Part shown: positions 10,455-32,683 of the stretch, in pieces | Position numbering within the stretch: position 1 is the stretch's first letter | How the letters are laid out: every line of letters begins with the position of its first letter | Source of the DNA: a virus | DNA: 64,000 nucleotides | Virus record (IMG/VR): IMGVR_UViG_3300025128_007994 | Strand: one strand, 5' to 3' | The notes under the pieces: model-generated | The model's database searches: none | What the model was told of the DNA's origin: nothing | What the model saw: the letters and a program-made list of their open reading frames with translations, nothing else | Translations under genes and position numbers: made by a program

Positions 10455-10464
10455 ACAAAAGAGA

Positions 10465-10493: not shown

Positions 10494-10530
10494 CTATTTA
10501 ATAGGGTAAGCCGGAGAAGAAGGACGAGCT

Positions 10531-11307: not shown

Positions 11308-11384
11308 CAGCAACAGAGACACAAGATTTTATTGACGAAGATATTACAGATCACGCCGCCGGCAGTGATCCATACATGAAATAA
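11304..11384 (+). CDS. Possible 26-aa acidic microprotein (MTATETQDFIDEDITDHAAGSDPYMK)
   Basis: ATGA overlap with the oxygenase stop; fills most of an otherwise empty gap; not in the ORF track because of its length. Confidence 0.3.
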   Translation: MTATETQDFIDEDITDHAAGSDPYMK

Positions 11385-11425
11385 GATGATTATGACAACA
11401 GAATTTTAAAAAAATAGGAGTTAAA

Positions 11426-11722
11426 ATGTCTGAAAAAAAACCAAGTGCGGTAGCACAAACTGAAGAGCAAATACACACAAATCCTATGCTATCTATGATA
11501 GTAGAAAAGGATTCCGAACTGAAAGATTACCTTGTCGAATTCGCCGGCAAGAAGTTTGACAAAGAAGAGGTCACAGTTAACATGATTGCAGAAGTCATGG
11601 CAATGGACTTCCCAGAATTTATGTATCCGCTTGCAGAAGAAAACTTTCTTCTTGGATATAAACAGGGGTTAGATGATGCTGAAACATTATATAATAGAAA
11701 AACAGAACAATCTGAAGAATAA
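11426..11722 (+). CDS. Hypothetical protein
   Basis: 98-aa ORF with AGGAG SD. Confidence 0.65.
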   Translation: MSEKKPSAVAQTEEQIHTNPMLSMIVEKDSELKDYLVEFAGKKFDKEEVTVNMIAEVMAMDFPEFMYPLAEENFLLGYKQGLDDAETLYNRKTEQSEE

Positions 11723-12365: not shown

Positions 12366-12383
12366 CCTGCAACAGGTTATAAT
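12355..12383 (+). promoter_or_regulatory. Perfect-consensus sigma70 promoter upstream of the nuclease and glycan operon
   Basis: TTGACA-N17-TATAAT, then AGGAG SD and ATG 12405. Confidence 0.85.
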
Positions 12384-12404
12384 ATAAAAGCAATAGGAGC
12401 ACAT

Positions 12405-13175: not shown

Positions 13176-13189
13176 GGAAATATAAAAAT

Positions 13190-15723: not shown

Positions 15724-15731
15724 TGAGTTAG

Positions 15732-16568
15732 ATGAAAATAGTATTCATAGCCGACGCTTTTGCGGAACAAGTGCTTGGCGGCGGCGAACTAAATAACGAA
15801 GAATTACTCAAGATGTTGGCACAAGATGGCCACGACGTATTAAAAATTAATAGTCATAAAGTTACAATAGAGTTTATTGACAGACATATAGAATCGAAGT
15901 TTATCATTGCAAACTTTGCGAATCTAAAACCTGCCCTCAGGGATAAGATCTGTGACACAGTGTATATTATATACGAACACGATCATAAATATTTGAATAC
16001 AAGAAACCCGGGTGAGTATCCGGGATTTAAAGCACCGAAAGAAGAAATAGTCAATATAGAACTGTATAAAAATGCCCGAGCAGTTCTGTGTCAATCACAG
16101 TTTCATTTGGAAATAATAAAAATGAACACTGAGCTTGATAATCTGGTTAATTTAAGCGGTAATCTTTGGTCACTGCGCTCACTTGACTTAATGAAAGCAA
16201 TGGCTGAAAAGCCGAAGTCTGAGTGTTGCTCAATTATGCAATCAAACATTATACATAAAAACACCCGTGAGGCTATTATGTATTGTAAACATAAAAAAAT
16301 GCCGTATAAATTGGTTTCTAGTAAAAATTATGAGTCTTTTTTGGATCAGTTGAGTGAAAACAAAACTTTATTATTCTTACCAAAAACCCCGGAAACACTC
16401 TCACGAGTTGTAGTTGAAGCAAGAATGATGGGAATGAGCGTCATCGTTAATAAAATGATTGGAGCGACTCGGGAGCCTTGGTATGAACTAAAAGGCAAAG
16501 ATCTGATTGAATATATGCGCGTAAAAAGAAAAATGATAAAAGACGTAGTTTTGGAGGAGTTATCATGA
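15732..16568 (+). CDS. Glycosyltransferase-like protein (GT-B)
   Basis: GGGELNN N-terminus and PETLSRVVVEARMMGM (E-x7-E-like). Confidence 0.65.
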   Translation: MKIVFIADAFAEQVLGGGELNNEELLKMLAQDGHDVLKINSHKVTIEFIDRHIESKFIIANFANLKPALRDKICDTVYIIYEHDHKYLNTRNPGEYPGFKAPKEEIVNIELYKNARAVLCQSQFHLEIIKMNTELDNLVNLSGNLWSLRSLDLMKAMAEKPKSECCSIMQSNIIHKNTREAIMYCKHKKMPYKLVSSKNYESFLDQLSENKTLLFLPKTPETLSRVVVEARMMGMSVIVNKMIGATREPWYELKGKDLIEYMRVKRKMIKDVVLEELS

Positions 16569-18394: not shown

Positions 18395-18422
18395 TTGACA
18401 AAAAGCCAATACGTGATATAAT
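18395..18422 (+). promoter_or_regulatory. Internal sigma70 promoter in the glycan island
   Basis: TTGACA-N16-TATAAT with extended TG (TGATATAAT), in the only sizeable gap of the island. Confidence 0.75.
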
Positions 18423-18446: not shown

Positions 18447-19178
18447 ATGAAAATAGATATAATAATTCCGTGCTACAATGCAGAAAAGTGGATAGAGAAA
18501 AGCATTAAGAGTGCCTTATCACAAACATATAAGAACATTCAAGTCATTGTAATTGATAATGAAAGCAGCGACAACAGTTACAAAGTAATCCAAGAAGTCC
18601 ATGGCCACCATCCGGAAATAATCATAGGGACTGTACCCAATATTTATCCTTACGGCTGGACTGAGCCGGTGGAAAAAGCTCTAAGTCTTTGTAATGGTGA
18701 TTATTTCACCATCTTGGGCGCGGATGATTACATCGATCCCGAATACATTGAGAAAATTGTCAAGATAATATCGAAAGCCCCAGACAAAATAAAGATTTTA
18801 CAAAGCCCCCTCATAGGAATCGATTCTGACAAAGGCATAACTTTAGAGGAAATAAAACACTCATATAACAGCTTGGGCCAATTTAAACAAATGTTGTTTG
18901 AAAAGTGCCCAGTGACGACGCCCACAGTTGTATACAAGAGAGAACTTCATGATAGTGGTATATTACGATGGGACTCAGAAACTTGCTCTGGCGCAGCAGA
19001 TTATGATTTATATTTCAATATAGCAGACAACGGCATTTTCATATATCCTTATCCCAAGTGGATCGGATATTATTACCGATGGCACTCAGATCAGGCAACT
19101 TGGGGCATGCATAAACAAACAACAAAATATGATTTGCTAATAAAACAAAAATGGATGGAAAAGTGGAAGAATGGATAA
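18447..19178 (+). CDS. Glycosyltransferase family 2
   Basis: IIIPCYNAEKWI, VIVIDNESSD, LGADDYI and AADYDLY. Confidence 0.9.
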   Translation: MKIDIIIPCYNAEKWIEKSIKSALSQTYKNIQVIVIDNESSDNSYKVIQEVHGHHPEIIIGTVPNIYPYGWTEPVEKALSLCNGDYFTILGADDYIDPEYIEKIVKIISKAPDKIKILQSPLIGIDSDKGITLEEIKHSYNSLGQFKQMLFEKCPVTTPTVVYKRELHDSGILRWDSETCSGAADYDLYFNIADNGIFIYPYPKWIGYYYRWHSDQATWGMHKQTTKYDLLIKQKWMEKWKNG

Positions 19179-20955
19179 CAAAATAAGATTGGTCGACTAT
19201 ATCGCAGACAGAGTACACCAATTGGGAGTAAAACACGTTTACACTCTTACCGGTGGCGGCGCAATGTTCCTTAACGACTCTGTAAAGAAGCATGAAAAAC
19301 TGCTCTCTGTTTGCAATCACCACGAACAAGCGAGCGCCATGGCTGCTGTAGCACATGCTAAATATACTAATGGGTTTTCGGTGGTGATACCAACCACAGG
19401 TTGTGGCAGTACAAACTGTATTACCGGTCTATTAGATGCATGGCAGGATAACTTGCCCTGTATATTTATTTCAGGTCAGGTCAACAAAGACCAAACTTGC
19501 TTTAGTTCAACTGCGAATATTCGTCAGTTCGGAGTTCAAGAGGCAAACATTGTAGAAATAGTTAAATCAATCACAAAGTATGCAGTTATGGTTGAGGCTC
19601 CGGAGGACATCGCATATCACCTCGACAAGGCCTTTCACCTGGCTTCTACGGGACGCCGCGGCCCTGTCTGGATAGATGTCCCGCTGGACGTTCAAGGGGC
19701 CTTTATAAACCCCTCTGAGCTTAAAAGGTATATTCCCGACGACAAGACGCTTTCTCCCGATTTAAACAATCTTAGGGAAATGCTAGAAAAAGCCACTCGG
19801 CCCGTAATATTAGCAGGAAATGGCGTGAGGTTAGCCGGCGCCTCAAAAGAAATAAAAACGTTCGCTGAAAAGCACAACATCCCAGTAGTCACTACCTTTC
19901 TGTCAGCCGATTTGTTGCCATCGGAACATGAATTGAACATAGGCAGAGTTGGCATTAAGGGCAATCGAGCAGCAAACTTTGTAGTGCAAAATTCTGATTT
20001 CTTATTGTCGATTGGTTGTAGACTAAGCGTGCCCTCTACCGGCTACAAATATGAATACTTTGCGAGAGAGGCCAATATCGCAGTTGTGGATATAGATCCG
20101 GAAGAGCACAAAAAAGACACTATTAAAATTGACTTGTTTGTGGAAATGGATGCCAAAGACTTTATGCTGAAGTTTGAAACAGAATATCGCTCAACTCAAG
20201 CATGGATAGATACATGTTCGAAATGGAAATCTACATGGCCTGTCTTTTTGCCGGAACACGAAGACGATGAGGATGGTATTAGTATGTACCGATTCATGAA
20301 AACACTGTCTATAACACTTCCTGCAAATTCTAGCGTAGTCGGAGATGCTGGCTCTGCATATTATGTGCCGTGCCAGGCGCTTCAAATCAAAGACGGTCAA
20401 CGCCTGATTACACCTGGAGCCCAAGCAGAAATGGGCTTTACATTGCCGGCCTGTATTGGGCTGTCTTTTGCTATGGAGAATCCTTGCATAGCGGGGATTA
20501 CTGGCGACGGCTCTTTTCAGACAAACATACAGGAATTGCAAACTATTGTACAATATAATCTTCCGGTTAAGATATTTGTGTGGAACAATGATGGCTACCT
20601 TTCAATCAGAACCACACAGAGAAAGTATTTTGAAGATCGATTCGTGGGTACTGACAAAGATAGCGGGGTCTCATTTCCCGATACTCAAAAAATTGCGGCC
20701 GCATATGGGATAAAATACTTTTCTATGTCAAACAATATGGAGCTTGATGCCCAAATGCAGGAGATAATAGATTTTGATGGTCCCGTTATTTGTGAAGTGA
20801 TGTGTAAAAAGTGGGACAAAGTACTGCCCACAATCGGTGCAAAAAAATTAGATAGCGGACAATTAGTATCCCAACCACTAGAAAACATGTTTCCTTTCTT
20901 GACAGAAGAGGAATTACGTGTTAATATGTTAGTACATTCAATAGAGGAGAAATAA
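19171..20955 (+). CDS. Thiamine-diphosphate-dependent enzyme, acetolactate-synthase-like (YerE-type subfamily found in O-antigen loci)
   Basis: GGGAMFLND, HHEQA, ISGQV, RQFGVQE, GPVWIDVPLDVQ and ThDP motif GDGSFQTN...WNNDGY. Confidence 0.85.
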   Translation: MDNKIRLVDYIADRVHQLGVKHVYTLTGGGAMFLNDSVKKHEKLLSVCNHHEQASAMAAVAHAKYTNGFSVVIPTTGCGSTNCITGLLDAWQDNLPCIFISGQVNKDQTCFSSTANIRQFGVQEANIVEIVKSITKYAVMVEAPEDIAYHLDKAFHLASTGRRGPVWIDVPLDVQGAFINPSELKRYIPDDKTLSPDLNNLREMLEKATRPVILAGNGVRLAGASKEIKTFAEKHNIPVVTTFLSADLLPSEHELNIGRVGIKGNRAANFVVQNSDFLLSIGCRLSVPSTGYKYEYFAREANIAVVDIDPEEHKKDTIKIDLFVEMDAKDFMLKFETEYRSTQAWIDTCSKWKSTWPVFLPEHEDDEDGISMYRFMKTLSITLPANSSVVGDAGSAYYVPCQALQIKDGQRLITPGAQAEMGFTLPACIGLSFAMENPCIAGITGDGSFQTNIQELQTIVQYNLPVKIFVWNNDGYLSIRTTQRKYFEDRFVGTDKDSGVSFPDTQKIAAAYGIKYFSMSNNMELDAQMQEIIDFDGPVICEVMCKKWDKVLPTIGAKKLDSGQLVSQPLENMFPFLTEEELRVNMLVHSIEEK

Positions 20956-20956
20956 C

Positions 20957-21889
20957 ATGAGTGCAAATGATAAAAACAAAGTTACAATTTTAAGATTACG
21001 TCGACAAAAGAGAGAAAAAACACCAACAGTGATAACCACTGCTTATGACTACCCACAAGCAAGAATCGCTGATGGTGCGGGTGTAGACTGCATTTTGGTG
21101 GGTGATTCATTAGGGATGACCACTCTAGGATACAAGACTACAATCCCCGTAACAATGGATGATATGATTAGACACTCTGAGGCAGTTTCCAAAGGCGCCA
21201 AGAATGCGTTCTTGATCGGAGATATGCCTTATATGTCTTACCAAGTATCCAACGAAGAAGCGGTGCGAAATGCAGGCCGCTTTGTTATTGCCGGCATGGA
21301 TTGTGTAAAGGTTGAGGGCGCTATGATTGAGCGCATTAAGGCCATCGCGGATTCCGGCATCATGGTGATGAGCCACCTGGGCCTCACTCCTCACACTAGA
21401 GCGAAGCTCGGGGGTTATCGAGTTCAAGGTAAAACAGCCAAACAAACGGAGATTATCCTACAACAGGCCCTTGATTTGCAAGAGGCTGGTTGCTCTTTTC
21501 TACTGCTAGAGGGCATGCCACGCGAGTCTGCTGAAATTATTGCCAAAGAACTTAAGATCCCTGTTTATGGGATTGGCGCTGGTGATAAGGTAGATGGTCA
21601 ATTGGTAATCTTTCATGACTTGATGGGCCTCTTTTGGGAGTTCAAATCTAAGTTTGTTAAGAGGTATTGTGAAGCTGGCCAAATTATGCAGAATGCCCTG
21701 AAGGAATATGCAGCCGAAGTTCGGTCTGGGAACTTCCCGGCAGAAGAAAACTTTTACGCCATCAAAGAAGAAGAGCTAGAGAGACTTCTCGGCGGAGGCA
21801 ACTGGAAGCACGATCAAGTATTGTATGAGACAGACCAAGGGTTTCCCACTAACCATAGTGCAACACCAAACACGGTAACTAAGAAGTAA
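20957..21889 (+). CDS. panB: Ketopantoate hydroxymethyltransferase (PanB)-like enzyme
   Basis: TAYDY, LVGDSLG, GDMPY, VKVEG, HLGLTP, GGYRVQG and GIGAG...DGQ..HD; has a C-terminal extension of about 40 aa. Confidence 0.88.
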   Translation: MSANDKNKVTILRLRRQKREKTPTVITTAYDYPQARIADGAGVDCILVGDSLGMTTLGYKTTIPVTMDDMIRHSEAVSKGAKNAFLIGDMPYMSYQVSNEEAVRNAGRFVIAGMDCVKVEGAMIERIKAIADSGIMVMSHLGLTPHTRAKLGGYRVQGKTAKQTEIILQQALDLQEAGCSFLLLEGMPRESAEIIAKELKIPVYGIGAGDKVDGQLVIFHDLMGLFWEFKSKFVKRYCEAGQIMQNALKEYAAEVRSGNFPAEENFYAIKEEELERLLGGGNWKHDQVLYETDQGFPTNHSATPNTVTKK

Positions 21890-21909
21890 TAGCCCGGAGC
21901 ACCATCTAG

Positions 21910-22761
21910 ATGAATATCTTATTAACAGGTGGTAATGGGTTTCTTGCGAAAGAGCTAAAGCACTATTTTCTAAATAACACAGCCTTGGATTGCAAACTCC
22001 TTGTAACCGACAGAACTACCCTTAACGTCACCGATTACGAGAGCGTTAGGGGTTTTTTTGAGAACAATGTAGTAGACGTTGTCATACATACCGCGGTAAA
22101 AGGTGGCAAACGATTAGATACGCAGACGGTTGATGACATTATCGATAATATCTTGATGTTCAAAAACTTGAGTTATTTTTCTGATCAGTTTAAAATAATG
22201 TTCAATTTTGGATCCGGCGCAGAGTTTAATCGCATGAACTCTATTGATTGTGCGACTGAAGAATCGGTGAGTGCATCATTACCTACCGATTATTATGGAT
22301 TATCTAAGAATATTATCGCCCGAAAAATAGCAAAAATGAATAGTAATATTTATAACTTACGCTTATTTGGGTGTTTTGGGCAACACGAAGAACCGCAAAG
22401 ATTGTTTCGCTCTTGTTATAACAATTTCAAACTAAATCAAAGCGCGCTAATAACATGTGACAGGTACATGGACTATTTTTACGCTCAAGACGTAGGCCGA
22501 GTAATCGAGCATATTATCGAAAAACATGATATGAGTCTGCCAAGAGACATAAATCTATGTTACTCAGAGAAACACACCTTGAGCGAACACGCACAGGTGA
22601 TTAAAGATTTGACAAACGCAAAGTCGCAGGTTATAATAGAACAGAAAGAATTGGGCAAATCCTATACGGGTAAGGCACACGTGCTCGATTCGCTAAACAT
22701 TGACCTGATGGGTCTGAATAAAGGAGTAAAAGAATGTCTGAAAAGTTGGAACAAATTATAG
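21910..22761 (+). CDS. NAD-dependent sugar epimerase/reductase (extended SDR)
   Basis: TGGNGFLA Rossmann motif, YGLSK (YxxxK) and LRLFGCFG. Confidence 0.85.
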   Translation: MNILLTGGNGFLAKELKHYFLNNTALDCKLLVTDRTTLNVTDYESVRGFFENNVVDVVIHTAVKGGKRLDTQTVDDIIDNILMFKNLSYFSDQFKIMFNFGSGAEFNRMNSIDCATEESVSASLPTDYYGLSKNIIARKIAKMNSNIYNLRLFGCFGQHEEPQRLFRSCYNNFKLNQSALITCDRYMDYFYAQDVGRVIEHIIEKHDMSLPRDINLCYSEKHTLSEHAQVIKDLTNAKSQVIIEQKELGKSYTGKAHVLDSLNIDLMGLNKGVKECLKSWNKL

Positions 22762-24071
22762 AGTTGGTGTCTGATTACATTTCTGAGAAGCACGAAAATG
22801 AAACGTGGACCCCTGGCGAAGACTGGGTAGCATACTCGGGCCCGGTTTTTGATGAAAAAGAATACATCGCCGCTGTACGCCAAATACTAGATGGTTGGAT
22901 GATTTTTGGCAAGAACGCAAGAGAGTTTGAGTTAAAGTTTCCGTCTAAGCTTGGAAAACTCTACGGATCCTTAACTAACTCAGGTTCATCGGCAAACTTG
23001 CTGATGGTAGCCGCTACTAAATCGCGACGATTCCCAAAACAATTAAAGGACGGAGACAAGATTATTACCCCAGTTGTTTGTTTTCCGACAACCATTAATC
23101 CTATTATACAAAACAACCTTGTACCAGTGTTTGTAGACGTTGAGCTTCCAAGTGTAAACTTGGACCTGGATAGAGTAGAAGAAGTCCTTGAGAGCGACCC
23201 TGACATTAAGGGGATAATGTTTGCACACGTGTTGGGTAACCCGCCTGACATGGACAGATTGATGGCTCTCGTAGAAAAATACGATTTGGTATTTCTAGAA
23301 GATGCATGCGATGCTTTGGGATCTTACTACGACGGTAAGAAGTTGGGCTCCTATGGAGACATGTCAACATGCTCTTTCTTCCCAGCCCACCATATGACGA
23401 TGGGAGAGGGAGGTTTCATTGCAACTAACAGTCAGAAGACACGTACGGCATTGGCTAGTATCCGAGACTGGGGGCGCGCTTGTTACTGCAACTCAATGAA
23501 ACCAGGCAACGTCACAAGCGAAACAGCGTGTGGTAACAGATTTAAAAACTGGTTGCCCGGCCTCAAAGATGCTGTGTACGATCACCGCTATGTTTTCGAT
23601 GAAATAGGTTACAACCTTAAACCACTAGATTTGCAGGCTGCAATGGGCCTACAGCAGCTTGAAAAACTTCCAATGTTAGATGCTGCTCGGAGAGAAAACT
23701 GGGCCAAGCTACGGGCCATATTTGAGCCTTATGCACAATACTTTCATATGCCGGAGGCTACCGAAAAGTCAGACCCGTGTTGGTTTGCCTTTCTGTTGAC
23801 AATCAAGGAAGGTGCCCCTTTCTCTCGTTCGGATATAGTAAACCATCTTGAGGGTCTTAAAATTCAAACACGTTCTTACTTCTCAGGCAACATCTTGGCT
23901 CACCCGGGCTACGTTCACCTTGCTGAAGAATATGGTGATATGTATGAAACCTTCCCTAACGCCCAATTGATTACGACAAACTCGTTCTTTTTAGGAACCT
24001 ATGTAGGCCTCACCGGCGAGAAACTTGAATATATTAAGGAAGCAGTTGATGGCTTCTTTGAGAATTTGTAA
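22734..24071 (+). CDS. rfbH: NDP-4-keto-6-deoxyhexose 3-dehydrase (RfbH/DdhC, E1; PMP and 2Fe-2S)
   Basis: NSGSSANLL, EDACDALG and SFFPAHHMTMGEGG (His replaces the PLP Lys); Cys cluster RDWGRACYC...CGNRF; YDHRY and GYNLKP. Confidence 0.9.
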   Translation: MSEKLEQIIELVSDYISEKHENETWTPGEDWVAYSGPVFDEKEYIAAVRQILDGWMIFGKNAREFELKFPSKLGKLYGSLTNSGSSANLLMVAATKSRRFPKQLKDGDKIITPVVCFPTTINPIIQNNLVPVFVDVELPSVNLDLDRVEEVLESDPDIKGIMFAHVLGNPPDMDRLMALVEKYDLVFLEDACDALGSYYDGKKLGSYGDMSTCSFFPAHHMTMGEGGFIATNSQKTRTALASIRDWGRACYCNSMKPGNVTSETACGNRFKNWLPGLKDAVYDHRYVFDEIGYNLKPLDLQAAMGLQQLEKLPMLDAARRENWAKLRAIFEPYAQYFHMPEATEKSDPCWFAFLLTIKEGAPFSRSDIVNHLEGLKIQTRSYFSGNILAHPGYVHLAEEYGDMYETFPNAQLITTNSFFLGTYVGLTGEKLEYIKEAVDGFFENL

Positions 24072-25021
24072 TGAAACTCGTTTATGTCACCGGCTGCCTG
24101 GGGTTTATTGGCTCGTATGTAACACGTAAATGCCTTGACAGGGGCTGGAAAGTGTATGGAGTAGACAAGTGCACGTATGTAGCCAACACTTCACTGCTAA
24201 AAAGCTTCGAAGCTAACCCCAACTTTACTTTCATCAAAGAGGATATAAAAGATCTTCAGCATCTGTATGACTGTGATTACGTTATTAATACGGCCGCAGA
24301 ATCTCATGTAGGAAATAGCATCATTGATTCGCAAGAGTTTATTGATAGTAACATTGTGGGTGTTCGCAACTTGTTGGACTTGATTCGCAACAAGCCCGTC
24401 AATTGCAATAGACGGCCGGTATTTTTTCACTTCAGCACTGACGAAGTATATGGGGATATTGAAAGCGGTGAACATACAGAACAAGATATTTTACACCCAA
24501 GCAATCCATATTCAGCGGCAAAAGCTTGTTCTGATATGCTTATCTTAGCGTGGGCCCGAACATATGGCGTCGAGTACATTCTGCTACGTCCAACCAATAA
24601 CTATGGAATAGGGCAGTACCCAGAGAAACTGATACCACTTTCTGTAAAGAATCTAATGCGAAATAGAAAGATTAGACTTCATAACGCCGGAACGCCAGTG
24701 AGAAACTGGTTGCATGCTGATGATACAGCAGAAGCTGTTATGACCATCATAGACTCAGGTAACACGAACGAAATCTATAATGTTGCCGGCGGCTTTGAGC
24801 AAAAGAACATAGATACAATATTAAAAGTTATTGACAACTTCTTTGAAGAAGATTATAATTGGGAAGAACATGTTGATTTTTCTTATTCTCGCGAAGGTCA
24901 AGATGTACGATATGCCTTGAACGATGACAAACTACGGGCCCTAGGTTGGACCGCCAAAAGAGACTTTAACAAAGAAATTTACGATATTGTTCAATATTAT
25001 AAAAAGAATTTCATATGGTAG
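24071..25021 (+). CDS. rfbB: dTDP-glucose 4,6-dehydratase-like
   Basis: TGCLGFIGS, AAESHV, STDEVYG, PYSAAKA, NNYG..QYPEKLIP and RNWLHADD. Confidence 0.9.
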   Translation: MKLVYVTGCLGFIGSYVTRKCLDRGWKVYGVDKCTYVANTSLLKSFEANPNFTFIKEDIKDLQHLYDCDYVINTAAESHVGNSIIDSQEFIDSNIVGVRNLLDLIRNKPVNCNRRPVFFHFSTDEVYGDIESGEHTEQDILHPSNPYSAAKACSDMLILAWARTYGVEYILLRPTNNYGIGQYPEKLIPLSVKNLMRNRKIRLHNAGTPVRNWLHADDTAEAVMTIIDSGNTNEIYNVAGGFEQKNIDTILKVIDNFFEEDYNWEEHVDFSYSREGQDVRYALNDDKLRALGWTAKRDFNKEIYDIVQYYKKNFIW

Positions 25022-25024: not shown

Positions 25025-26020
25025 ATGATACACACAGGAGTAGAAAGAATGCCCAAATGGTATGAACCCACTAGCGATAATATTATTGGTATTCCCCTCG
25101 CCGAAAACGCTCCGGAATGGCAATGCTCATCTGGGACCCCCGAATTGCAACTAGCTGATCTTGGCCGACGAGCGGATTACCTTGTAAGCGAGTTTAAGGA
25201 TTACGTGAAAGACCCAGAGTTGGAAAAATTGATTTCAGGAAAGCGCTTGGCATTCATTGGGCCCGCTCCAAGTTTAGATGGCCTGGGTCTTGGTGAATTG
25301 TTCGACTCATATGATTTGGTAGTTCGCATCAATACTGCCTATCACATGCCAGAGCAGCTTTGGGAAGACTACGGGAAGAGGACAGATATACTAGTAAACT
25401 GCTTAAACTTTAACAAAATCAGAGCTTTGCAAGAAAACATGGACTTCACAAAATCTGTGAAGTATCTTATACAGCCACAGCTTTCAATGTGGGACATCAA
25501 AAAAGCCGAAAAGATTATCCACGAATGGGGCGCCCCATTTCATAACGTGTGTGATGGTTATTTGTTTAAGGTTAACAAGGAAATAGGCACAACCACTAAC
25601 ACTGGTTTGCTGGGGGTGATAACTCTCTTGAACTATAATATAAAAGAGTTGTATATTGGAGGATTCACCTTTTTTGATATGGGTTCAAAGAGTGGAGAAT
25701 ACTACAACAAAGCACACCTCTCTCAAACAATCAAATATGACCCAGTTCAAGTAGTTGATAATAAACTCACCAGCGCCTCGTTAAGGTTAGATGACCTGCA
25801 CTTGCAGGAGCCTCAAATATTGTATTTTGGTAAAATATTGCGAAAATATTATGGAACCAAGATCCAGGTGGATGAGTATCTAAGACAAAATTTCAATTTA
25901 TGGATAGACGGCGCCGTCGACGGCATCTCTGATAAAGGCGTTAAAAAACTTTTTCAACTTGATAGACAATTAAAACTAAACAACAATTTAACCATTTGTA
26001 AATGGGAAGGAAAAATATAA
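25025..26020 (+). CDS. GT29-like sialyltransferase
   Basis: Sialylmotif-L-like LAFIGPAPSL..GLGELFDSYDLVVRIN...DYGKRTD; sialylmotif-S-like TNTGLLG...LYIGGFTFF. Confidence 0.7.
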   Translation: MIHTGVERMPKWYEPTSDNIIGIPLAENAPEWQCSSGTPELQLADLGRRADYLVSEFKDYVKDPELEKLISGKRLAFIGPAPSLDGLGLGELFDSYDLVVRINTAYHMPEQLWEDYGKRTDILVNCLNFNKIRALQENMDFTKSVKYLIQPQLSMWDIKKAEKIIHEWGAPFHNVCDGYLFKVNKEIGTTTNTGLLGVITLLNYNIKELYIGGFTFFDMGSKSGEYYNKAHLSQTIKYDPVQVVDNKLTSASLRLDDLHLQEPQILYFGKILRKYYGTKIQVDEYLRQNFNLWIDGAVDGISDKGVKKLFQLDRQLKLNNNLTICKWEGKI

Positions 26021-27156
26021 TGAAAGTAGTAGCAATGATACCTGCCCGTTTTGGCAGCAAAAGAATCCCAAAAAAGAATATACGCTTGTTAAATGGAATC
26101 CCATTGATAAGTTATATTATTAGAGCCGCCAAAGAGGCAAAATGCTTCGATGAAATATACGTTAACTCAGAGTCAGATATTTTGGGAGAGATTGCAGAAA
26201 AAGAAGGCGTAAGTTTTTATAAACGCCCCGCGGAACTTTCAACCGACAGCGCAACAAACGATGAGTTCACACAAGACTTTATGAACAATGTAGAGTGTGA
26301 TGTATTGGTACAACTTTTACCTACATCACCGTTCATAAAAGCACGCGACATACTAAAATTTACCGCCACTATGCTCGGCACGGAGGCCGACACACTTGTA
26401 TCAGTTACCGATCAACAGATAGAGTGCATATATAATCGACAGCCAGTCAACTTTGACCAAAAGAAGATCTCCCCACCGTCGCAGGATGTGACGCCGGTAC
26501 AACCTTATGCATGCGGCATGATGGGTTGGAAAACCTCCAACTATCTTGCGAATATGGATAAGTACAATTGTGGTTATCACGGTGGTGACGGCGATATACA
26601 CTTCTATACTGTTTCGGGCTTTGCGACAGTTGACGTTGACAACGAAGAAGATTTTCAATTAGCGGAAGTAATTGCCCGAGCAATATCAAAAGAAGCATAT
26701 GCACCTCAATTTTATGGCGAAACGCATTCGGAAGTTGATGTTCCTTCAATCTTGCTTAAGGACGGAGTTAAAAATAATAATTTACATGACACCAACAAAG
26801 AAATAGTCAATATCAACGAGATACGTTCTTCGTTCAAGTCAACAAAGTCGTGGAGTCACCGAGTTGTAAATACGGAAAACAACAGCGCGACCTTGATCCA
26901 CCAACAGCCGGGCCAAGGAAATCGAAGGCACTATCACCCAGATTGGAACGAGTGGTGGTATATCGTCGATGGAGAGTGGGAGTGGGAAATCGACGGAGTT
27001 AAGAAAATTGTCAAAAAAGATGATATTGTTTTTATACCCAAGGGTATAATACACAGAATAGAGGCCACCGGTGACAAGCCTGCAATTCGCCTAGCTATCA
27101 GCCGGGAAGATGTGGCACATGTATATCCAGATGGAGAGCATACAAATGAAAGATAA
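26020..27156 (+). CDS. CMP-ulosonic acid synthetase (NeuA/KdsB-like cytidylyltransferase) fused to a C-terminal cupin
   Basis: IPARFGSKRIPKKN, VNSES, YKRP, PTSPF and VDVDNEEDF; cupin HYHPDWNEWWYIVDG...FIPKGIIHRI. Confidence 0.88.
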   Translation: MKVVAMIPARFGSKRIPKKNIRLLNGIPLISYIIRAAKEAKCFDEIYVNSESDILGEIAEKEGVSFYKRPAELSTDSATNDEFTQDFMNNVECDVLVQLLPTSPFIKARDILKFTATMLGTEADTLVSVTDQQIECIYNRQPVNFDQKKISPPSQDVTPVQPYACGMMGWKTSNYLANMDKYNCGYHGGDGDIHFYTVSGFATVDVDNEEDFQLAEVIARAISKEAYAPQFYGETHSEVDVPSILLKDGVKNNNLHDTNKEIVNINEIRSSFKSTKSWSHRVVNTENNSATLIHQQPGQGNRRHYHPDWNEWWYIVDGEWEWEIDGVKKIVKKDDIVFIPKGIIHRIEATGDKPAIRLAISREDVAHVYPDGEHTNER

Positions 27157-28045
27157 TGTACTTTTGAATGAAACAATGTTTGTCATAGGTTCGGGCCCGA
27201 GCTTGAACGCTATCGATATCAAAAAATTAGAGGGTCTTCATACTATTTCCTTGAATCGGCAGTATATTGCCTATGAAGACTGGGGCTTTTGGCCAAAATA
27301 CCACGCTTGTATCGATATACGATTGATAAATACTATTTACGAATCAGATCTTCTTCCAATGATGTTAAGCCCGGAATGCGAAATTGAGAGATTTTTCATC
27401 TATGGCTGCAGCAATCTTGAAGTCCCGGAGGACGTCGCTGCACACTATAACATTCAAGCAGGGGCGCTTCCGGAAAAGCTCATATGGATACCGGCGGTTG
27501 GTAGTACATTCCGGACCCCCGCTCAGCGCACCAAGACTATTCCGAAGCTAGAAACATGCTATGTAGACCCAGAGCTAGCGCGGGAAAGACTGAGCACACA
27601 TCTTCGGGATCCAAATGATCCGTATTCATGCTTAGAGCACTTTGGTATCTCCGGAGCCTGGTCAGTAACATTAGCTCGCAGCTTGGGGTATAAAAGAGTT
27701 GTCGTCTTGGGCATCGATGCCAACTACGTTCCCCGTGTCGAATCAATTAGTGCTGGAAGAGACCTCAACCACTTTCACAAAAATTATTTTGATGTAGATA
27801 CTTTTGTATATCAAGTTAACTTCGGGCCGGCCACCGGCTACTTAGAACCATGGAAAATAATGGCCACCGGCACTGGCCTCAATGACCAGCCCGTTTCTTG
27901 CGGATCGCCAGATGCGGCCCATGTTTGCGCCGATGAGACCATTGAGGTAATTTCATCTTCGCCAGGCTCACCTATTAATGAGTGGTTTGAATATATTGAT
28001 TTTAATAAATTGTTGGAAAGCTATGAGGCAGAAGATGAATATTGA
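27146..28045 (+). CDS. DUF115/MAF_flag10-like protein (possible ulosonate transferase)
   Basis: FVIGSGPSLN, ISLNR, SGAWSVTLARSLGYKRVVVLGID and NHFHKNYF; start at ATG 27146. Confidence 0.6.
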   Translation: MKDNVLLNETMFVIGSGPSLNAIDIKKLEGLHTISLNRQYIAYEDWGFWPKYHACIDIRLINTIYESDLLPMMLSPECEIERFFIYGCSNLEVPEDVAAHYNIQAGALPEKLIWIPAVGSTFRTPAQRTKTIPKLETCYVDPELARERLSTHLRDPNDPYSCLEHFGISGAWSVTLARSLGYKRVVVLGIDANYVPRVESISAGRDLNHFHKNYFDVDTFVYQVNFGPATGYLEPWKIMATGTGLNDQPVSCGSPDAAHVCADETIEVISSSPGSPINEWFEYIDFNKLLESYEAEDEY

Positions 28046-28757
28046 TTTTGCAAACCAAAATGTGCTGGTAACTGGTGGTACCCGCGGAATAGGTAATCAA
28101 ATTGCAAACGATTTCGCCAATTTAGGTGCACACGTTTTGATTACTGGCACGAAAAAACCAAAACAAAAGATACACCAAAACATACAATTTGTTTCTGCGA
28201 ATTTTCTGGATAACACTTCAACCGAAAACTTTATTAAAGAGATCTCTGAACAAACATTTGATGTCTGCGTTAACAATGCTGGCATTAACAAGATTGATCC
28301 ACTCTGCGAGGTCAAAGAGCAAGACTGGAATGACGTAATGAAAGTCAACCTCACAGCACCATTTTTGATACAGCAGGCTGTATGCAAGAACATGCTCAAC
28401 CAGAGCTACGGAAAGATAGTCAATATCTCCTCTATATGGGGCACAGTCAGCATTCCGCACCGCGCCAGTTACTCTGCCAGCAAGTTCGGTCTACGAGGCC
28501 TCACGGCAGCCTCAGCGGCCGAACTGGCTCAACATAACATTTTGATCAACACTGTCTCGCCGGGGTTCACATTAACTGACCTGACCAAACAAATCTTGGG
28601 TGAACAGGGTATTGAAGACTTGACAAAACAGATTCCAATGCGACGAATGGCTGAGGTGGATGAAATATCGAGAGTTGTACTGTTCATGTGCAGCAAACTC
28701 AATACATATATTTCTGGCCAGAATATCATTGTAGACGGCGGATTTGTAAATGTGTGA
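28035..28757 (+). CDS. Classical SDR oxidoreductase (FabG-like)
   Basis: VLVTGGTRGIG, VNNAG, YSASK and NIIVDGG; start at ATG 28035. Confidence 0.92.
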   Translation: MNIDFANQNVLVTGGTRGIGNQIANDFANLGAHVLITGTKKPKQKIHQNIQFVSANFLDNTSTENFIKEISEQTFDVCVNNAGINKIDPLCEVKEQDWNDVMKVNLTAPFLIQQAVCKNMLNQSYGKIVNISSIWGTVSIPHRASYSASKFGLRGLTAASAAELAQHNILINTVSPGFTLTDLTKQILGEQGIEDLTKQIPMRRMAEVDEISRVVLFMCSKLNTYISGQNIIVDGGFVNV

Positions 28758-29811
28758 CATCGAAACTATTGAAATTAAATCTTATAGAAGAAAATATAAA
28801 GTTATGTTTCAACAACTGTCGGAGAGCCTAGTTGAGAATGTTAAGGAAAAGTCTTTTTTGATAATCGATTCAAACGTAGACAAATACTTTCCCCTGTTTC
28901 GTTCAAGATTTGATGAACACAACATATTTGTTGTCGAAGCAAATGAACAAAATAAGACCTTGCAAACCTGCACGGCCCTTGTCGAAAGACTTGTATCCCA
29001 GGGTTTTAAAAGAAATCATAAACTTATTGCTGTGGGCGGCGGTGTTGTCCAAGACATAACAGCGTTTACAGCATCAGTTCTATATCGTGGTGTTGAATGG
29101 AGATTCTTTCCCACGACTCTGTTGGCTCAAGCAGATAGCTGCATAGGCAGCAAGACATCCATCAACTTGGGCGAAACAAAGAACTTATTAGGCACGTTTT
29201 ATCCACCAGCGGAGATCTATTGTTGCCCTGAGTTTTTAGAAACGTTGCATGAGGACGACATCAAATCTGGCATCGGCGAGATATTCCATTATTATTTAAC
29301 AGCAGATAGCAACATGTCGAAAGAACTAGCAGAATCGTATGAATCGGTCATTAAACATCCGGCCCTCCGCTGCGCCAAGCACATTAGAGAAAGCCTCTCC
29401 ATTAAAAAGAGAATGATTGAAAAGGATGAGTTTGATGAAGGCGAGAGAAAGATATTCAATTACGGTCACACTTTTGGTCACGCTATAGAAGCGATTAGTA
29501 GATACGAAGTAAGTCATGGCAATGCTGTTACATTAGGAATGGATATTGCTAACTATATTTCGTTGAAAAAAGGACTTATAGAGCAGGCCACATACGAACA
29601 CCTGTTCGGGATGATTAAAAAAAATATACCAGACTATCGTTTAACCGAAGATAGGCTTCAAGACTATTTTACTTTTTTGTCAAAAGACAAGAAGAACATT
29701 GACAATTCTTTAGTTTGTATATTACCATATGGGATCGGAGACATGAGAACAACTGCAATAGATGATATTGACAGTGTAAAAGATATAATAAGAGAGTATT
29801 TTAACAAATGA
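28750..29811 (+). CDS. AroB-related sugar-phosphate cyclase (DHQ synthase superfamily)
   Basis: GGGVVQDITAF, PTTLLAQADSCIGSKTSIN, KNLLGTF, NYGHTFGHAIE, HGNAV and DKK. The QDIT/SCIGSKT variant differs from canonical GDxxGF/SSVGGKT. Confidence 0.85.
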   Translation: MCDIETIEIKSYRRKYKVMFQQLSESLVENVKEKSFLIIDSNVDKYFPLFRSRFDEHNIFVVEANEQNKTLQTCTALVERLVSQGFKRNHKLIAVGGGVVQDITAFTASVLYRGVEWRFFPTTLLAQADSCIGSKTSINLGETKNLLGTFYPPAEIYCCPEFLETLHEDDIKSGIGEIFHYYLTADSNMSKELAESYESVIKHPALRCAKHIRESLSIKKRMIEKDEFDEGERKIFNYGHTFGHAIEAISRYEVSHGNAVTLGMDIANYISLKKGLIEQATYEHLFGMIKKNIPDYRLTEDRLQDYFTFLSKDKKNIDNSLVCILPYGIGDMRTTAIDDIDSVKDIIREYFNK

Positions 29812-30974
29812 GAAGTATAGCCCGTAGTAGTAAATTTGATATTAAGGTTGATTTTTCAAAAAGTCACGAATCTTATCTATTTGATAAAAACACCGATAGG
29901 GAGCTTTTAGATTTTTTTGGCATGTATGCGTCATTGCCTCTTGGTTACAATCACCCGATTTTCAAGTCAGATGAATTTATAGAAGAATACTTACGTGTAG
30001 CCAGTTTTAAAATAAATAACTGTGAGTTCACCTCCGACGAAACGCTGGAGTTTGACAGGGACTTTAAGCGATACGCTGGGGTCGACATTTTTGAACATTT
30101 CCACTATTCTTGCACCGGTGCGCTAGCCGTTGAAGCGGCAATTAAAACATGCATAGATTATAAGCGCCACACAAGCCCATTGATCTTATCGTTCGATAAC
30201 AGTTTCCATGGAATCAATAGTTACGGAGGCTTTGTGACCTCTCGATTTCCTGGCGCCGATACGCGCTTGGATGGATATCCATCTGTCTTTTCTAAAAAGA
30301 TTCCCTGCAATCTAGAGAATGTTGAAGAAGAAATGCGCACTGGTAAAATAACTTGTGTATTAGTCGAACCAATTCAATGTAGCGCTGGAGATATCTATCA
30401 TGATAACCAATTCTTTAATGGTTTGCGTACTCTTTGCAATGTATATGACGTCCCACTAGTGTTTGATGAGATACAGATTGGTTTTGGTGGCACAGGCAAA
30501 GTGTGGTACTTCCAGCATCTTGATATAGTGCCTGACATCGTTATCTTTGGAAAGAAGACACAGTTGTCGGGAATCATGGCACAAGAAAAATACGGAGAAA
30601 TATTTAATCCAAAGAACAGTATCAGATTAGAGGTGACATGGGACGGCGATGTGGCCGATATGGTAAGGTGTAAATACATCATGAAGGCATATGAAAAAAA
30701 CAATATACTGGACAATGTCAACAAGCAGAGTAAGGCCATAATGGGCGGGTTGTCCGACATAGAGGAGATACTAAATTTGAGAAATTGTGGATTAATTATA
30801 GGATTTGATTTGCCAAACTCTCAAAAGCGTGATATAGTAGTAGACAAGTTGTATAAAAACGGCTTAATTTGCAACAAAACCGGTCAAAAATCTGTTAGAT
30901 TTAGACCAAATTTGAATGTAAATGAAAAAGAAATAGACCATGCGTTACAAATTATAAAGGAAACAATAAAGTAA
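29808..30974 (+). CDS. Class III PLP aminotransferase (lysine 6-aminotransferase-like)
   Basis: TGALAVEAAIK, SFHG, VEPIQ, VFDEIQIGFG, FGKKTQ (PLP Lys) and TWDG. Confidence 0.88.
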   Translation: MRSIARSSKFDIKVDFSKSHESYLFDKNTDRELLDFFGMYASLPLGYNHPIFKSDEFIEEYLRVASFKINNCEFTSDETLEFDRDFKRYAGVDIFEHFHYSCTGALAVEAAIKTCIDYKRHTSPLILSFDNSFHGINSYGGFVTSRFPGADTRLDGYPSVFSKKIPCNLENVEEEMRTGKITCVLVEPIQCSAGDIYHDNQFFNGLRTLCNVYDVPLVFDEIQIGFGGTGKVWYFQHLDIVPDIVIFGKKTQLSGIMAQEKYGEIFNPKNSIRLEVTWDGDVADMVRCKYIMKAYEKNNILDNVNKQSKAIMGGLSDIEEILNLRNCGLIIGFDLPNSQKRDIVVDKLYKNGLICNKTGQKSVRFRPNLNVNEKEIDHALQIIKETIK

Positions 30975-31583
30975 ATGTTAATTAATTTTGAGAATATTGA
31001 AGAAAAATGCCACACGGCAGCCTCATCGGCTGAGTATGCGATACTCGCCGAGAAAGTGAGCAAAGTAAAAAAGATCTTTTTGATTGGAAATGGTGGCTTG
31101 CACTACGTAGCGAGCCATATGGCGACCGATTTATCGCGACTGATACCGGATAAGGCTGTATATTCATTTGATAGTGTCGGGTTTATCACATCCAACGCCA
31201 ACGATCATGGGTATGACAAGATCTTTATTAGATGGCTAGAAACTATTGCCAATGGTGTTGAAAGACCGGAGGAGTGCTTAATTATAGGACTCTCTTGTTC
31301 GGGCAATTCGGGCAATGTTATCGATGCCCTACATTGGGCTGACGATACTGGCTATGAGACATTTATGGTTAGCGGTCAAACGTCTGATGTTTTGCGCAAA
31401 GGCGTGGATGAATTATCCCTTGATTGTGAATTTTTCCACACTGTCGAAGTAATGTGTCTAATGATATTCTATGATCTTATTCACCGTACAGGCAATCACT
31501 GTCCGTCTATTCGACAAGAAAAAGACAGACTGACAGACTCCCCTCTTCGCAAATCGAAGGAGGAAAATTGGGAACCCCTATAG
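30975..31583 (+). CDS. SIS-domain sugar-phosphate isomerase (divergent GmhA-like)
   Basis: IFLIGNGG, ASHMATD, ANDHGYDKIF and LSCSGNSGNVIDA. Confidence 0.8.
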   Translation: MLINFENIEEKCHTAASSAEYAILAEKVSKVKKIFLIGNGGLHYVASHMATDLSRLIPDKAVYSFDSVGFITSNANDHGYDKIFIRWLETIANGVERPEECLIIGLSCSGNSGNVIDALHWADDTGYETFMVSGQTSDVLRKGVDELSLDCEFFHTVEVMCLMIFYDLIHRTGNHCPSIRQEKDRLTDSPLRKSKEENWEPL

Positions 31584-32683
31584 ACAAGATTTGCTGTGTT
31601 ATATACCATACAGGAGAGATGTATAAGAAAATAGCATCCAATGCAGTCAACAGCTTTAAGAAATATCACCCAGATATACAACTATTTGAGGTGACAGATG
31701 ACAACATTAGTGATTACCATTTTTCTAAAAACATAAACTTTTCTATTGATGGCATCGAAACCGAAATAGATATCGGCGCAAGAAAATTTTTCATCGCCGC
31801 TGAACTAATGAAGCTTCGCGGTTACAAGAAAGTTATCTGTTTAGGTGCTGACACCATAACGACCGCAAGACTCACGGAGTTTATAGAAACACCCGCGGGA
31901 ATAGCTGTTACCAGTGACTATCCTGACGCAAATGCTTTTCCTTGGGAACACAACGGAAACATGGTTTTGGGGCAGCCGGCTTGTATTAATAAAGATCCAA
32001 ATGCTGCAGGGACCCCAATAGCAGATTTTCATAAAATATACGAAGAGTCTTACAAGAACAATACCTTAGTCGCAGATGTCGCCTATGTTAATGCAGACGT
32101 TGTCTGTTTCAACTCACAAGAAATATTAGAGGAAGTATGTAAAATATGGTATAAATATCGGGCCATAACATTGATCCCAAAATATAGATTCCGACTGGCA
32201 CATGAAGTTGGTGCGTACGACCTTGATATGCCCCAATCAGAGATAAATCTTATTAGAAGTAAGCTGTCAGAAATCAAATCACCGAATGCTTGGGATCCGA
32301 CATCCCAGACTGCGATGGTGACTCGGTACCATTATCTTTCGGAACAAGCCGCGTTAAACATCTTCGTTGCACCACACACGCAGCAGCCCGGGGTCATTCA
32401 ATTTGTTGACCTGCCTGTTCTTAAAAAAGGAGTTTGTTATAATGTTCGTAGCAAGGGCACCGTAAGTCACTCTAACAAGAATTTAAAAGATTTTTATGTT
32501 AAAGATGGTCATCTATTTAATCACACCCACAATCAAATAAAGGTTTGGCATTACTGTGCGTCTCTATCTTCGAGTCCCAAGGGATTTGAGGGCACCCTAA
32601 AAGAGATAAATGATTCTTTTAGCGATGAGGTAAAACAATATTTTGCTAATGAATGCAACTGTGAGAATTACTTTAATGTATAA
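31568..32683 (+). CDS. Glycosyltransferase-like protein (GT8-like, GT-A)
   Basis: VICLGADTI (DxD-like), YVNADVV, SEQAALN and KVWHY; TTG start after GGAGG. Confidence 0.55.
   Translation: MGTPIDKICCVIYHTGEMYKKIASNAVNSFKKYHPDIQLFEVTDDNISDYHFSKNINFSIDGIETEIDIGARKFFIAAELMKLRGYKKVICLGADTITTARLTEFIETPAGIAVTSDYPDANAFPWEHNGNMVLGQPACINKDPNAAGTPIADFHKIYEESYKNNTLVADVAYVNADVVCFNSQEILEEVCKIWYKYRAITLIPKYRFRLAHEVGAYDLDMPQSEINLIRSKLSEIKSPNAWDPTSQTAMVTRYHYLSEQAALNIFVAPHTQQPGVIQFVDLPVLKKGVCYNVRSKGTVSHSNKNLKDFYVKDGHLFNHTHNQIKVWHYCASLSSSPKGFEGTLKEINDSFSDEVKQYFANECNCENYFNV

Follow-up and report, generated by a model that had tools for sequence, protein, structure and literature searches.

A phage copy of a widespread gene cassette built around a TIGR04425 AroB paralogue and its possible role in the formation and transfer of a sialic-acid-like sugar

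In the 64,000 nucleotides analysed from the IMG/VR virus record IMGVR_UViG_3300025128_007994 (the window), seven plus-strand open reading frames (ORFs) between positions 25025 and 31583 encode, in this order, a GT29-like glycosyltransferase, a cytidine monophosphate (CMP)-ulosonate synthetase fused to a cupin, a Maf-like protein, a short-chain dehydrogenase/reductase (SDR), a relative of the 3-dehydroquinate (DHQ) synthase AroB, a class III aminotransferase and a GmhA-like SIS protein (Table 1). These genes are the phage copy of a widespread and biochemically uncharacterised cassette that is built around an AroB paralogue of family TIGR04425. We lean towards a function in which the cassette would convert a 2-ulosonate 7-phosphate of the host into an amino, sialic-acid-like sugar that is CMP-activated and transferred, with a non-carbocyclic product being favoured. 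All seven gene calls hold, and profiles, family matches and folds agree with the identities that had been assigned to the genes from the letters of this stretch alone (hereafter the sequence-only reading). The gene identities are established, as are the operon structure, the synteny, the family placement, the fingerprint typical of DHQ synthase (DHQS), the folds of both transferases and the lack of condensing enzymes in related phages. Our analysis supports the general idea of the sequence-only reading, in which the genes make and transfer a sialic-acid-like residue that is non-canonical, amino-modified and CMP-activated.

Results

The AroB-like protein

Against TIGR04425 (AroB-related putative sugar phosphate phospholyase, cyclizing) the AroB-like protein scores 423.1 bits (cut-off 400), with the match spanning residues 9–352 and profile positions 1–346 of 348, whilst it stays below the cut-off of the aroB equivalog TIGR01357 (282.5 against 305 bits). 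In a quick LG+G4 tree search, supported by SH-aLRT values only, 156 family rows are split from four true AroB proteins by a branch with a support of 99. The identity to true AroB is 28–35%, and all catalytic motifs are present. The sequence-only reading had set a plain DHQ synthase against its own proposal; in bacteria this does not hold, as five cassette-bearing genomes each contain a separate true AroB above the cut-off (340–392 bits), with the copies in the cassettes reaching 238–278 bits. Since cassette-bearing bacteria keep their own true AroB, the AroB-like protein is a paralogue with another job. In one gammaproteobacterial genome (locus L070, G010 C1:552190-557314) both genes are found 4 kb apart on opposite strands, true aroB scoring 385 bits and the AroB-like gene 278 bits.

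The window protein was aligned with three family members, two true AroB proteins, three sedoheptulose 7-phosphate (S7P) cyclases annotated in RefSeq and one 2-deoxy-scyllo-inosose (DOI) synthase, the annotations of the comparison cyclases being automatic. Residues K219, R233, N237 and H244 (DHQS K250, R264, N268 and H275) are shared by the AroB-like family and AroB and are invariant across the 156 family rows; the S7P cyclases display M/L, K/A/S, D and P in these positions and the DOI synthase K, A, E and H. [quoted passage not shown] Since the AroB-like protein has retained the four residues by which DHQS differs from the S7P and DOI cyclases, its substrate is probably a carboxylate-bearing, DAHP-like compound and not S7P. 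The aminocyclitol logic of the sequence-only reading (S7P cyclase plus aminotransferase plus dehydrogenase) is not supported by this fingerprint.

Only four differences from AroB were found to be fixed throughout the family: G to Q101, F to W117, S to C131 and A to G176. At position 180 (DHQS K197), 41 rows, among them that of the window, have His where all other aligned members of the superfamily have Lys, and these 41 rows form essentially one clade (two changes on the tree). The H180 clade is never found with thiamine diphosphate (ThDP) enzymes and rarely with an aldolase, and all 74 rows from a ThDP context keep K180. As this reflects one evolutionary event, the H180/ThDP pattern is to be read as a property of the clade rather than as a statistical association; the test of H180 against the absence of an aldolase contained only 1–2 independent pairs and has no power.

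Gene neighbourhoods of the family

A word-limited search with the family gave 7750 matches, a count that includes true AroB; at least 598 genome stretches from prokaryotic species and about 100 viral contigs, including giant-virus bins, contain relatives of the AroB-like protein. The neighbourhoods of family members were compared in 160 loci, 80 from genomes and 80 from viruses, in which ORFs were called by a simple longest-ORF procedure and all ORFs were clustered, with each cluster named from one representative. In 116 of 158 loci the AroB-like gene is immediately preceded on its 5' side by an SDR gene, all of these SDRs belonging to a single cluster; the same slot is occupied by a DegT aminotransferase in five loci, all viral, and by an SDRe enzyme in four. 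The closest solved relatives of the slot-replacing DegT enzyme are perosamine synthetase, the scyllo-inositol and DOI aminotransferases and KdnA.

The SDR/AroB-like pair occurs in two contexts. In type A it is accompanied by a CTP_transf_3 synthetase and an SIS protein, to which bacterial loci usually add a GFO/IDH/MocA oxidoreductase and a D-2-hydroxyacid dehydrogenase, often also an HpcH aldolase and methyltransferases, and in six loci a gene of the 6-phosphogluconolactonase family. In type B, found in 78 of the 160 loci, the partners are a ThDP enzyme resembling acetolactate synthase and YerE, an SDRe, an RfbH-like enzyme and a 4,6-dehydratase, and for condensation these loci have either a divergent HpcH aldolase (cluster c7), or NeuB, or an HMGL-like enzyme along with an FGGY kinase. 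On the tree, members of the same context tend to group together yet the two contexts are interleaved, with at least seven switches forced by supported branches. Outside the H180 subclade the pair usually co-occurs with enzymes that condense pyruvate or phosphoenolpyruvate, namely HpcH (cluster c23 and the divergent c7), NeuB, and the HMGL-like enzyme with FGGY kinase. Family members in the ThDP context are also located on the contigs L135, L145 and L148, which are labelled as giant-virus metagenome-assembled genomes (GVMAG), and hence the SDR/AroB-like pair is not confined to phages and prokaryotes.

Six core genes (GT29-like, CMP-cupin, SDR, AroB-like, class III aminotransferase and SIS) are found together in 21 viral contigs, within 4–7.7 kb and at protein identities down to 27–53%; an arrangement that is retained at such identities is not due to chance. 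Sister phage cassettes keep the GT29-like, CMP-cupin, aminotransferase and SIS genes and have the SDR and AroB-like genes swapped out, either for an HpcH aldolase, a HAD-nucleotidyltransferase fusion and a second CTP_transf_3 enzyme, or, in the second sister type (L180/L181, 7385-8002), with a fumarylacetoacetate-hydrolase-family protein encoded directly 5' of the CMP-cupin gene; enzymes of this family use 2-oxo or 2,4-dioxo acids. In a further viral contig, L165 (IMGVR_UViG_3300006751_004060, 1-16000), an upstream module contains NeuB, an AroB-like gene of the K180 type and an FGGY kinase, and a downstream module contains GT29-like, CMP-cupin, Maf-like, SDR, aminotransferase, 2-hydroxyacid dehydrogenase, GFO and SIS genes, the usual slot being without an AroB-like gene.

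The phage-type gene order was also encountered in L001 (JACAFS010000027.1), a 13.9 kb contig of a 'Thaumarchaeota archaeon' metagenome-assembled genome, at 33–77% identity: glycosyltransferases, SDRe, RfbH, 4,6-dehydratase, GT29-like, CMP-cupin, Maf-like, SDR, AroB-like and aminotransferase. It pairs with the viral contig L086 in the tree and is probably a phage contig that was binned into an archaeal genome.

The claim of the sequence-only reading that neither a NeuB/KdsA-type synthase nor NeuC is encoded in the window was borne out. Homologues of NeuB, HpcH, 2-hydroxyacid dehydrogenase and GFO are absent from the 64 kb, and a Pfam scan of every window ORF long enough to encode NeuB, KdsA or NeuC returned no such match. 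Five related phage contigs, one of them 98% complete, contain no NeuB, DAHP synthase/KdsA, HpcH, 2-hydroxyacid dehydrogenase or GFO, and NeuC was found neither there nor in the window.

Activation, modification and transfer

The synthetase domain of the CMP-cupin protein matches CTP_transf_3 (PF02348) with 83.6 bits (cut-off 22.6), its closest solved relatives being NeuA/CMAS enzymes, and the C-terminal domain matches Cupin_2 with 63.8 bits and has an intact HxH..E..H metal motif. The protein stays below the cut-offs of the substrate-specific equivalogs, with 98.6 against 205.7 bits for PseF and no more than 53 against 155–281 bits for the KdsB models. Among 50,697 phage records no relative was found, except for one bacterial contig. 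The idea that the cupin substitutes for the 2-hydroxyacid dehydrogenase was rejected, as both co-occur in L165, L097 and L034.

For the SDR, the conserved ATG is likely to be the true start. The closest solved relative of the aminotransferase is lysine epsilon-aminotransferase from M. tuberculosis (191 bits, with about 98 for the next), whilst the L-lysine 6-transaminase equivalog TIGR03251 is missed by a wide distance (276.9 against 520.8 bits); its gene adjoins the CMP-cupin gene in sister cassettes even where the SDR and AroB-like genes are lacking. The SIS protein, encoded in 27 of the 30 viral loci of the H180 subclade, reaches 59.9 bits against the GmhA equivalog TIGR00441 (cut-off 209.45). 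Its phosphate loop and the equivalent of GmhA H61 are kept and E65 is replaced by D; towards the C-terminus, in a weakly aligned region mapped by hand onto what we take to be the E. coli GmhA sequence, D169 would be replaced by H and Q172 by E.

Two enzymes of sialyltransferase fold adjoin the synthetase. The window GT29-like protein itself matches PF00777 with 20.7 bits, below the cut-off of 23, but 19 of 20 members of its family match this profile (best E-value 2.3e-13) and two proteins from sister loci pass the cut-off (26.3 and 30.5 bits). The top 30 Foldseek matches in the PDB to its AF2 model (pLDDT 81.6) are all mammalian GT29 sialyltransferases, with TM-scores of only 0.32–0.50, and H259 is invariant across the family alignment. 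On these profile and fold matches, the protein is assigned to a phage-specific GT29-like family. The Maf-like protein shows a similar picture: its own match to MptE-like is weak (18.1 bits, cut-off 34.6), but all 13 family members match this profile at E-values up to 0.01 (best 5.9e-10) and two also match CST-I. Its model has a pLDDT of only 68.7, and the top 15 PDB matches are sialyltransferases, 14 of them Campylobacter GT42 Cst-I/CstII chains and one a chain from Pasteurella multocida, with the Magnetospirillum Maf (5mu5) following at rank 17. No flagellin gene was found near the Maf-like gene.

Table 1. Features of the cassette and of the site preceding it, in window coordinates.
Feature	Position	Strand	Basis
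Perfect sigma-70 consensus, TTGACA-N17-TATAAT	24831..24859	+	12/12 matches, 165 nt 5' of the GT29-like gene
GT29-like glycosyltransferase, sialyltransferase fold	25025..26020	+	family Pfam matches, fold matches
NeuA-type CMP-ulosonate synthetase (residues 7-225) and metal-binding cupin (residues about 287-370)	26002..27156	+	domain scores
MptE-like, GT42/Maf-type second sialyltransferase-fold enzyme	27110..28045	+	family MptE-like matches, fold matches
Classical SDR ketoreductase (FabG/KduD-like)	28035..28757	+	ORF open from 27978; conserved start ATG 28035
AroB-related NAD/metal-dependent phospho-lyase, TIGR04425, H180 subclade	28750..29811	+	HMM score, alignment, tree
Class III (lysine epsilon-aminotransferase-like) aminotransferase	29808..30974	+	domain and solved-relative scores
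GmhA-like single-SIS sugar-phosphate isomerase, conserved phosphate loop	30975..31583	+	domain score, alignment

Operon and genomic setting

Successive ORFs of the cassette overlap by 19, 47, 11, 8, 4 and 0 nt (the 11 nt being counted from the SDR start at 28035), and the seven genes are a single tight operon. Judged by its sequence and position, the consensus site at 24831-24859 is the probable promoter of the module. Three perfect 12/12 sigma-70 sites are present on the plus strand in the 19 kb around the glycan island (18395-18422, 22609-22637 and 24831-24859), each located just 5' of one sub-module, these being the GT2/ThDP, RfbH and GT29-like genes.

The CMP module is located inside a 21-kb glycan island, its neighbours being a set of ThDP, PanB, RfbH and 4,6-dehydratase genes along with Fcl and Gmd. 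In the closest relatives, L081–L099, the glycosyltransferase genes are followed directly by SDRe, RfbH and 4,6-dehydratase; the genes of the ThDP enzyme and the PanB-like protein (19171-21889) are both missing there, and for this reason the pair looks like a recent insertion in the window. No homologue of PanB was found across all 160 loci compared. At the other end of the cassette, a 371-aa ORF (31568-32683) without a Pfam match overlaps the SIS stop by 16 nt. The language-model neighbours of its product are phage-only clusters, some of which have GT8 or nucleotide-diphospho-sugar transferase domains, and the ORF probably encodes a further GT-A glycosyltransferase; it was considered as the missing condensing enzyme and rejected, since these neighbours are phage GT-A-type transferases.

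Elsewhere in the window, a eukaryotic-type phosphomannomutase (PF03332, E-value 1.3e-36) is encoded at 4781-5572 and presumably feeds the Gmd/Fcl branch of GDP-sugars. Two giant ORFs 3' of the glycan island (38733-45377, 2214 aa; 49195-60537, 3780 aa, with a Laminin_G_3 domain) are candidates for glycosylated virion fibres. The remaining gene content includes PhoH, UvdE, a PD-(D/E)XK nuclease and giant structural ORFs, and the baseplate wedge protein is 28–31% identical to its counterparts in Microcystis phage Mel-JY01 and Flavobacterium 'immuto' phages. From these genes the window looks like a large uncultured myovirus; a DNA-level search against cultured phages gave zero matches.

Discussion

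Proposed pathway

From the gene set and its relatives we infer a substrate, an outcome of the AroB-like reaction, an order of steps, roles for the SIS and cupin proteins and an acceptor as follows. A DAHP-like 2-ulosonate 7-phosphate would be drawn from the host; a compound of this type is suggested by the fingerprint and by the condensing enzymes that accompany the pair elsewhere, and DAHP is the simplest candidate because the phage lineage encodes no condensing enzyme. The AroB-like enzyme would oxidise a ring hydroxyl with its bound NAD+ and eliminate phosphate in the manner of DHQ synthase, giving a deoxy-keto ulosonate. That its product carries a ketone is suggested by the next gene being a reductase or an aminotransferase: the translationally coupled SDR may reduce this ketone, and/or the lysine-aminotransferase-like enzyme may turn it into an amine. 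The NeuA-type domain would then add CMP, with the fused cupin probably isomerising or epimerising the sugar, and the GT29-like and GT42/Maf-like enzymes would move the residue onto a glycan or protein, be it a phage product or a component of the host surface. The presence of two sialyltransferase folds suggests that the final compound is a transferable CMP-activated donor, and as both adjoin the CMP-synthetase, a real ulosonic acid with a ring oxygen appears to be preferable to a pure carbocycle.

Three outcomes can be envisaged for the AroB-like reaction. The full DHQS reaction would lead to a DHQ-like carbocycle (M1), elimination followed by tautomerisation to a 6-keto-7-deoxy acid (M2), and hydride return to C7, as in the NDP-hexose 4,6-dehydratases, to a 5-keto-7-deoxy pyranose (M3). 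M2 and M3 would retain the 2-oxo acid, M3 also the ring oxygen. CTP_transf_3 enzymes act on 2-oxo-acid sugars, and YerE-like ThDP enzymes use 2-oxo acids as donors and ring ketones beside a methyl-bearing carbon as acceptors; M2 or M3 would thus allow either of these enzymes to follow, with reduction, amination and ThDP branching being the continuations observed, and would also give a product that sialyltransferase-like enzymes can use. We therefore prefer a chemistry in which the AroB-like enzyme would be the ulosonate counterpart of an NDP-hexose 4,6-dehydratase and form a 5-keto-7-deoxy (or 6-keto-7-deoxy) heptulosonate with its ring oxygen and 2-oxo-acid head retained. With amination at C5, the pathway would end in a 'mini sialic acid', a deoxy amino sugar of seven carbons. 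Kdo (3-deoxy-D-manno-octulosonate) 8-phosphate was rejected as a substrate by reasoning: the pyranose carbon that would need the transient carbonyl bears the ring oxygen, and hence a DHQS-type elimination cannot reach the phosphate at C8.

Comparison with known systems

The AroB-like protein has the fold and the NAD and metal sites of AroB (EC 4.2.3.4; TIGR01357), including R113, D129, K135, N145, E177, K219, R233, N237, H240, H244, H256 and K314/K315, and transient oxidation followed by beta-elimination of phosphate is probably shared. It differs in Q101, W117, C131 and G176, in the His that replaces DHQS K197 in the window subclade, and in that its gene is always located in glycan loci, coupled to an SDR or aminotransferase. 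The S7P cyclases and DOI synthase belong to the same superfamily and display a similar pattern of a cyclase gene followed by an aminotransferase gene, but differ in the four fingerprint positions, and the cassette leads up to CMP activation and to enzymes resembling sialyltransferases rather than to the assembly of a pseudo-oligosaccharide.

Nearest in logic is the Kdo pathway (KdsD, KdsA, KdsC, KdsB), with its isomerase, 2-keto-3-deoxy acid phosphate, phosphate removal and activation by a CTP_transf_3 enzyme, and sister phage cassettes have an HpcH aldolase, an SIS protein and a HAD fusion where SDR and AroB-like genes would otherwise be found. The cassette, however, lacks KdsA and KdsC, uses a lyase-type enzyme and a reductase in place of the phosphatase, which would leave a deoxy position, has a NeuA-like and not a KdsB-like synthetase and adds an aminotransferase. 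With the sialic, legionaminic and pseudaminic acid pathways it shares the NeuA-type CMP-synthetase, the sialyltransferase fold of two enzymes and an amino, probably deoxy, product of ulosonic type; in contrast to these it lacks a NeuB-type synthase, NeuC and the UDP/GDP-HexNAc dehydratase steps, and its backbone probably comprises seven carbons from a keto acid of central metabolism. In Shewanella, where Kdo is converted to Kdo8N by the oxidase KdnB and the aminotransferase KdnA, an ulosonic acid is likewise oxidised and transaminated before CMP activation, and KdnA is among the solved relatives of the slot-replacing DegT aminotransferase of five phage loci. KdnB is an enzyme of the Fe-alcohol-dehydrogenase type that acts on free Kdo, whereas the cassette enzyme is a phosphate-eliminating DHQS paralogue and the window aminotransferase belongs to class III.

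The likeness to NDP-hexose 4,6-dehydratases and the enzymes that follow them, 4-ketoreductases or 4-aminotransferases (Gmd/Rmd, Gmd/perosamine synthetase) and the yersiniose enzymes YerE/YerF, is a mechanistic analogy only. In these systems oxidation by NAD+ and elimination lead to a keto-deoxy sugar that is then reduced, transaminated or branched by a ThDP enzyme, and these three kinds of partner are exactly those that adjoin the AroB-like gene. The folds (extended SDR versus DHQS) and the leaving groups (water versus phosphate) are different, and to our knowledge the return of hydride to a terminal carbon has been demonstrated for no DHQS-family enzyme.

Weighing the alternatives

Several points weigh against the pathway that we favour. 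All of the evidence is comparative, and nearly all conserved DHQ-synthase residues are kept in the AroB-like family. The enol-pyranose of DHQS cyclises spontaneously, so that a DHQ-like carbocycle is the default expectation for a DAHP-like substrate; M1 is the default prediction from the conserved catalytic residues and from known DHQS chemistry, and a return of hydride to C7 is not known to us from any enzyme of the DHQS family. With DAHP as the substrate, the SIS and cupin proteins have no explained role, and the GFO and 2-hydroxyacid dehydrogenase of bacterial cassettes fit a sedoheptulose-derived keto acid better than DAHP. For the phage of the window itself, the absence of NeuB covers the 64-kb window, and the link between H180 and the lack of an aldolase is a single clade event and not independent evidence.

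Given these points, a carbocyclic product is the alternative to be taken most seriously, though we consider it rather doubtful. Here the full DHQS reaction on a DAHP-like substrate would give a DHQ-like ketone that is aminated or reduced and then CMP-esterified at its tertiary alcohol, yielding a carba-analogue of a CMP-ulosonate that may either be an unusual donor or, as a natural mimic of the donor, inhibit Kdo or sialyl-type transferases of the host. The full catalytic set of the AroB-like protein favours such a reaction, and aminocyclitol pathways are known to pair a DOI synthase with a DegT aminotransferase that follows it; the slot-replacing DegT enzyme is about as close to the scyllo-inositol/DOI aminotransferases as to perosamine synthetase, the GFO/IDH/MocA enzymes frequent in bacterial cassettes include inositol dehydrogenases, and synthetic CMP-quinic acid derivatives inhibit sialyltransferases. 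A pure carbocycle, however, cannot form an oxocarbenium ion and is no normal donor for the two sialyltransferase-fold enzymes that are syntenic with the synthetase in many phages, a DHQ-like product lacks the 2-oxo acid and could be used in the ThDP context only as an acceptor, and we know of no carbocyclic CMP-sugar. There is a slim chance that the phage diverts host DAHP into a CMP-esterified, carbocyclic amino quinate-like acid, a natural carba-analogue of CMP-sialic acid or CMP-Kdo that would, during infection, inhibit Kdo or nonulosonate transferases of the host by mimicking their donor, or be used in an unprecedented transfer. The substrate could also arise without an aldolase from sedoheptulose, a route that would fit whichever outcome the AroB-like reaction has: the SIS protein would make an aldoheptose 7-phosphate, and dehydrogenases would oxidise C1 and then C2 to give 2-keto-heptonate 7-phosphate, which is DAHP with a 3-OH, before the AroB-like and SDR enzymes remove the phosphate and CMP is added. 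The bacterial core of the CMP type (GFO, SIS, SDR, AroB-like, 2-hydroxyacid dehydrogenase and CTP_transf_3) speaks for this route, with the 6-phosphogluconolactonase-family gene added in six loci, and the GmhA-like SIS protein with its intact phosphate loop is present in nearly all viral H180-type loci (27/30), in which the rarity of an aldolase would also be explained. As the window and the five related phage contigs lack GFO and 2-hydroxyacid dehydrogenase, both oxidations would be left without an enzyme there, and the SIS protein is far below the GmhA cut-off (60 against 209 bits) and has E65 changed to D; this source is therefore unlikely.

The two remaining explanations concern the assignment of the genes to a pathway. 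With the pair accompanying YerE-like ThDP, SDRe, RfbH-like and 4,6-dehydratase genes in 78/160 loci, and such a module lying 3.7 kb upstream in the window, the SDR/AroB-like pair could serve this neighbouring NDP-3,6-dideoxyhexose/ThDP branched-sugar module (19171-25021) instead of the CMP module. Yet K180 is present in all 74 members from a ThDP context, and the window protein is part of the H180 clade, none of whose members occurs with ThDP enzymes; the closest relatives L081–L099 share the CMP module but have no ThDP or PanB gene, and the pair is enclosed in the CMP module behind a perfect consensus promoter of its own, which makes this assignment very improbable. That the AroB-like gene is an ordinary auxiliary aroB, boosting the synthesis of aromatic amino acids in the host and placed in a glycan operon incidentally, would agree with its identity to true AroB and its complete catalytic motifs, but is hardly credible in view of the two profile cut-offs between which it falls on the TIGR04425 side, its separate clade, the true AroB that cassette-bearing bacteria keep and the synteny with SDR, aminotransferase, CMP-synthetase and transferases that is fixed across 21 phage contigs.

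Novelty and implications

We found no paper in the literature on the TIGR04425 family or the cassette. New in this work are the analysis of the two contexts, the substitution of an aminotransferase in the slot next to the AroB-like gene, the co-occurrence with condensing enzymes, the fingerprint that separates DHQS from the cyclases, the H180 clade, the sister cassettes and the fold evidence for both transferases.

Should the proposed pathway be correct, CMP-activated sialic-acid-like sugars would be made without any NeuB- or KdsA-type synthase, and a keto-acid sugar phosphate of central metabolism would be recycled through a repurposed shikimate enzyme. Given the size of the family, glycan databases, surveys of nonulosonic acids and models of phage host range may all lack a whole class of surface sugars. 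For enzymology, the family would provide a natural experiment on what makes the DHQ-synthase scaffold cyclise its product. For phage biology, it would mean that uncultured aquatic myoviruses carry a complete kit to make, activate and transfer such a sugar, including two sialyltransferase-fold enzymes, and this would imply decoration of the virion or remodelling of the host surface.

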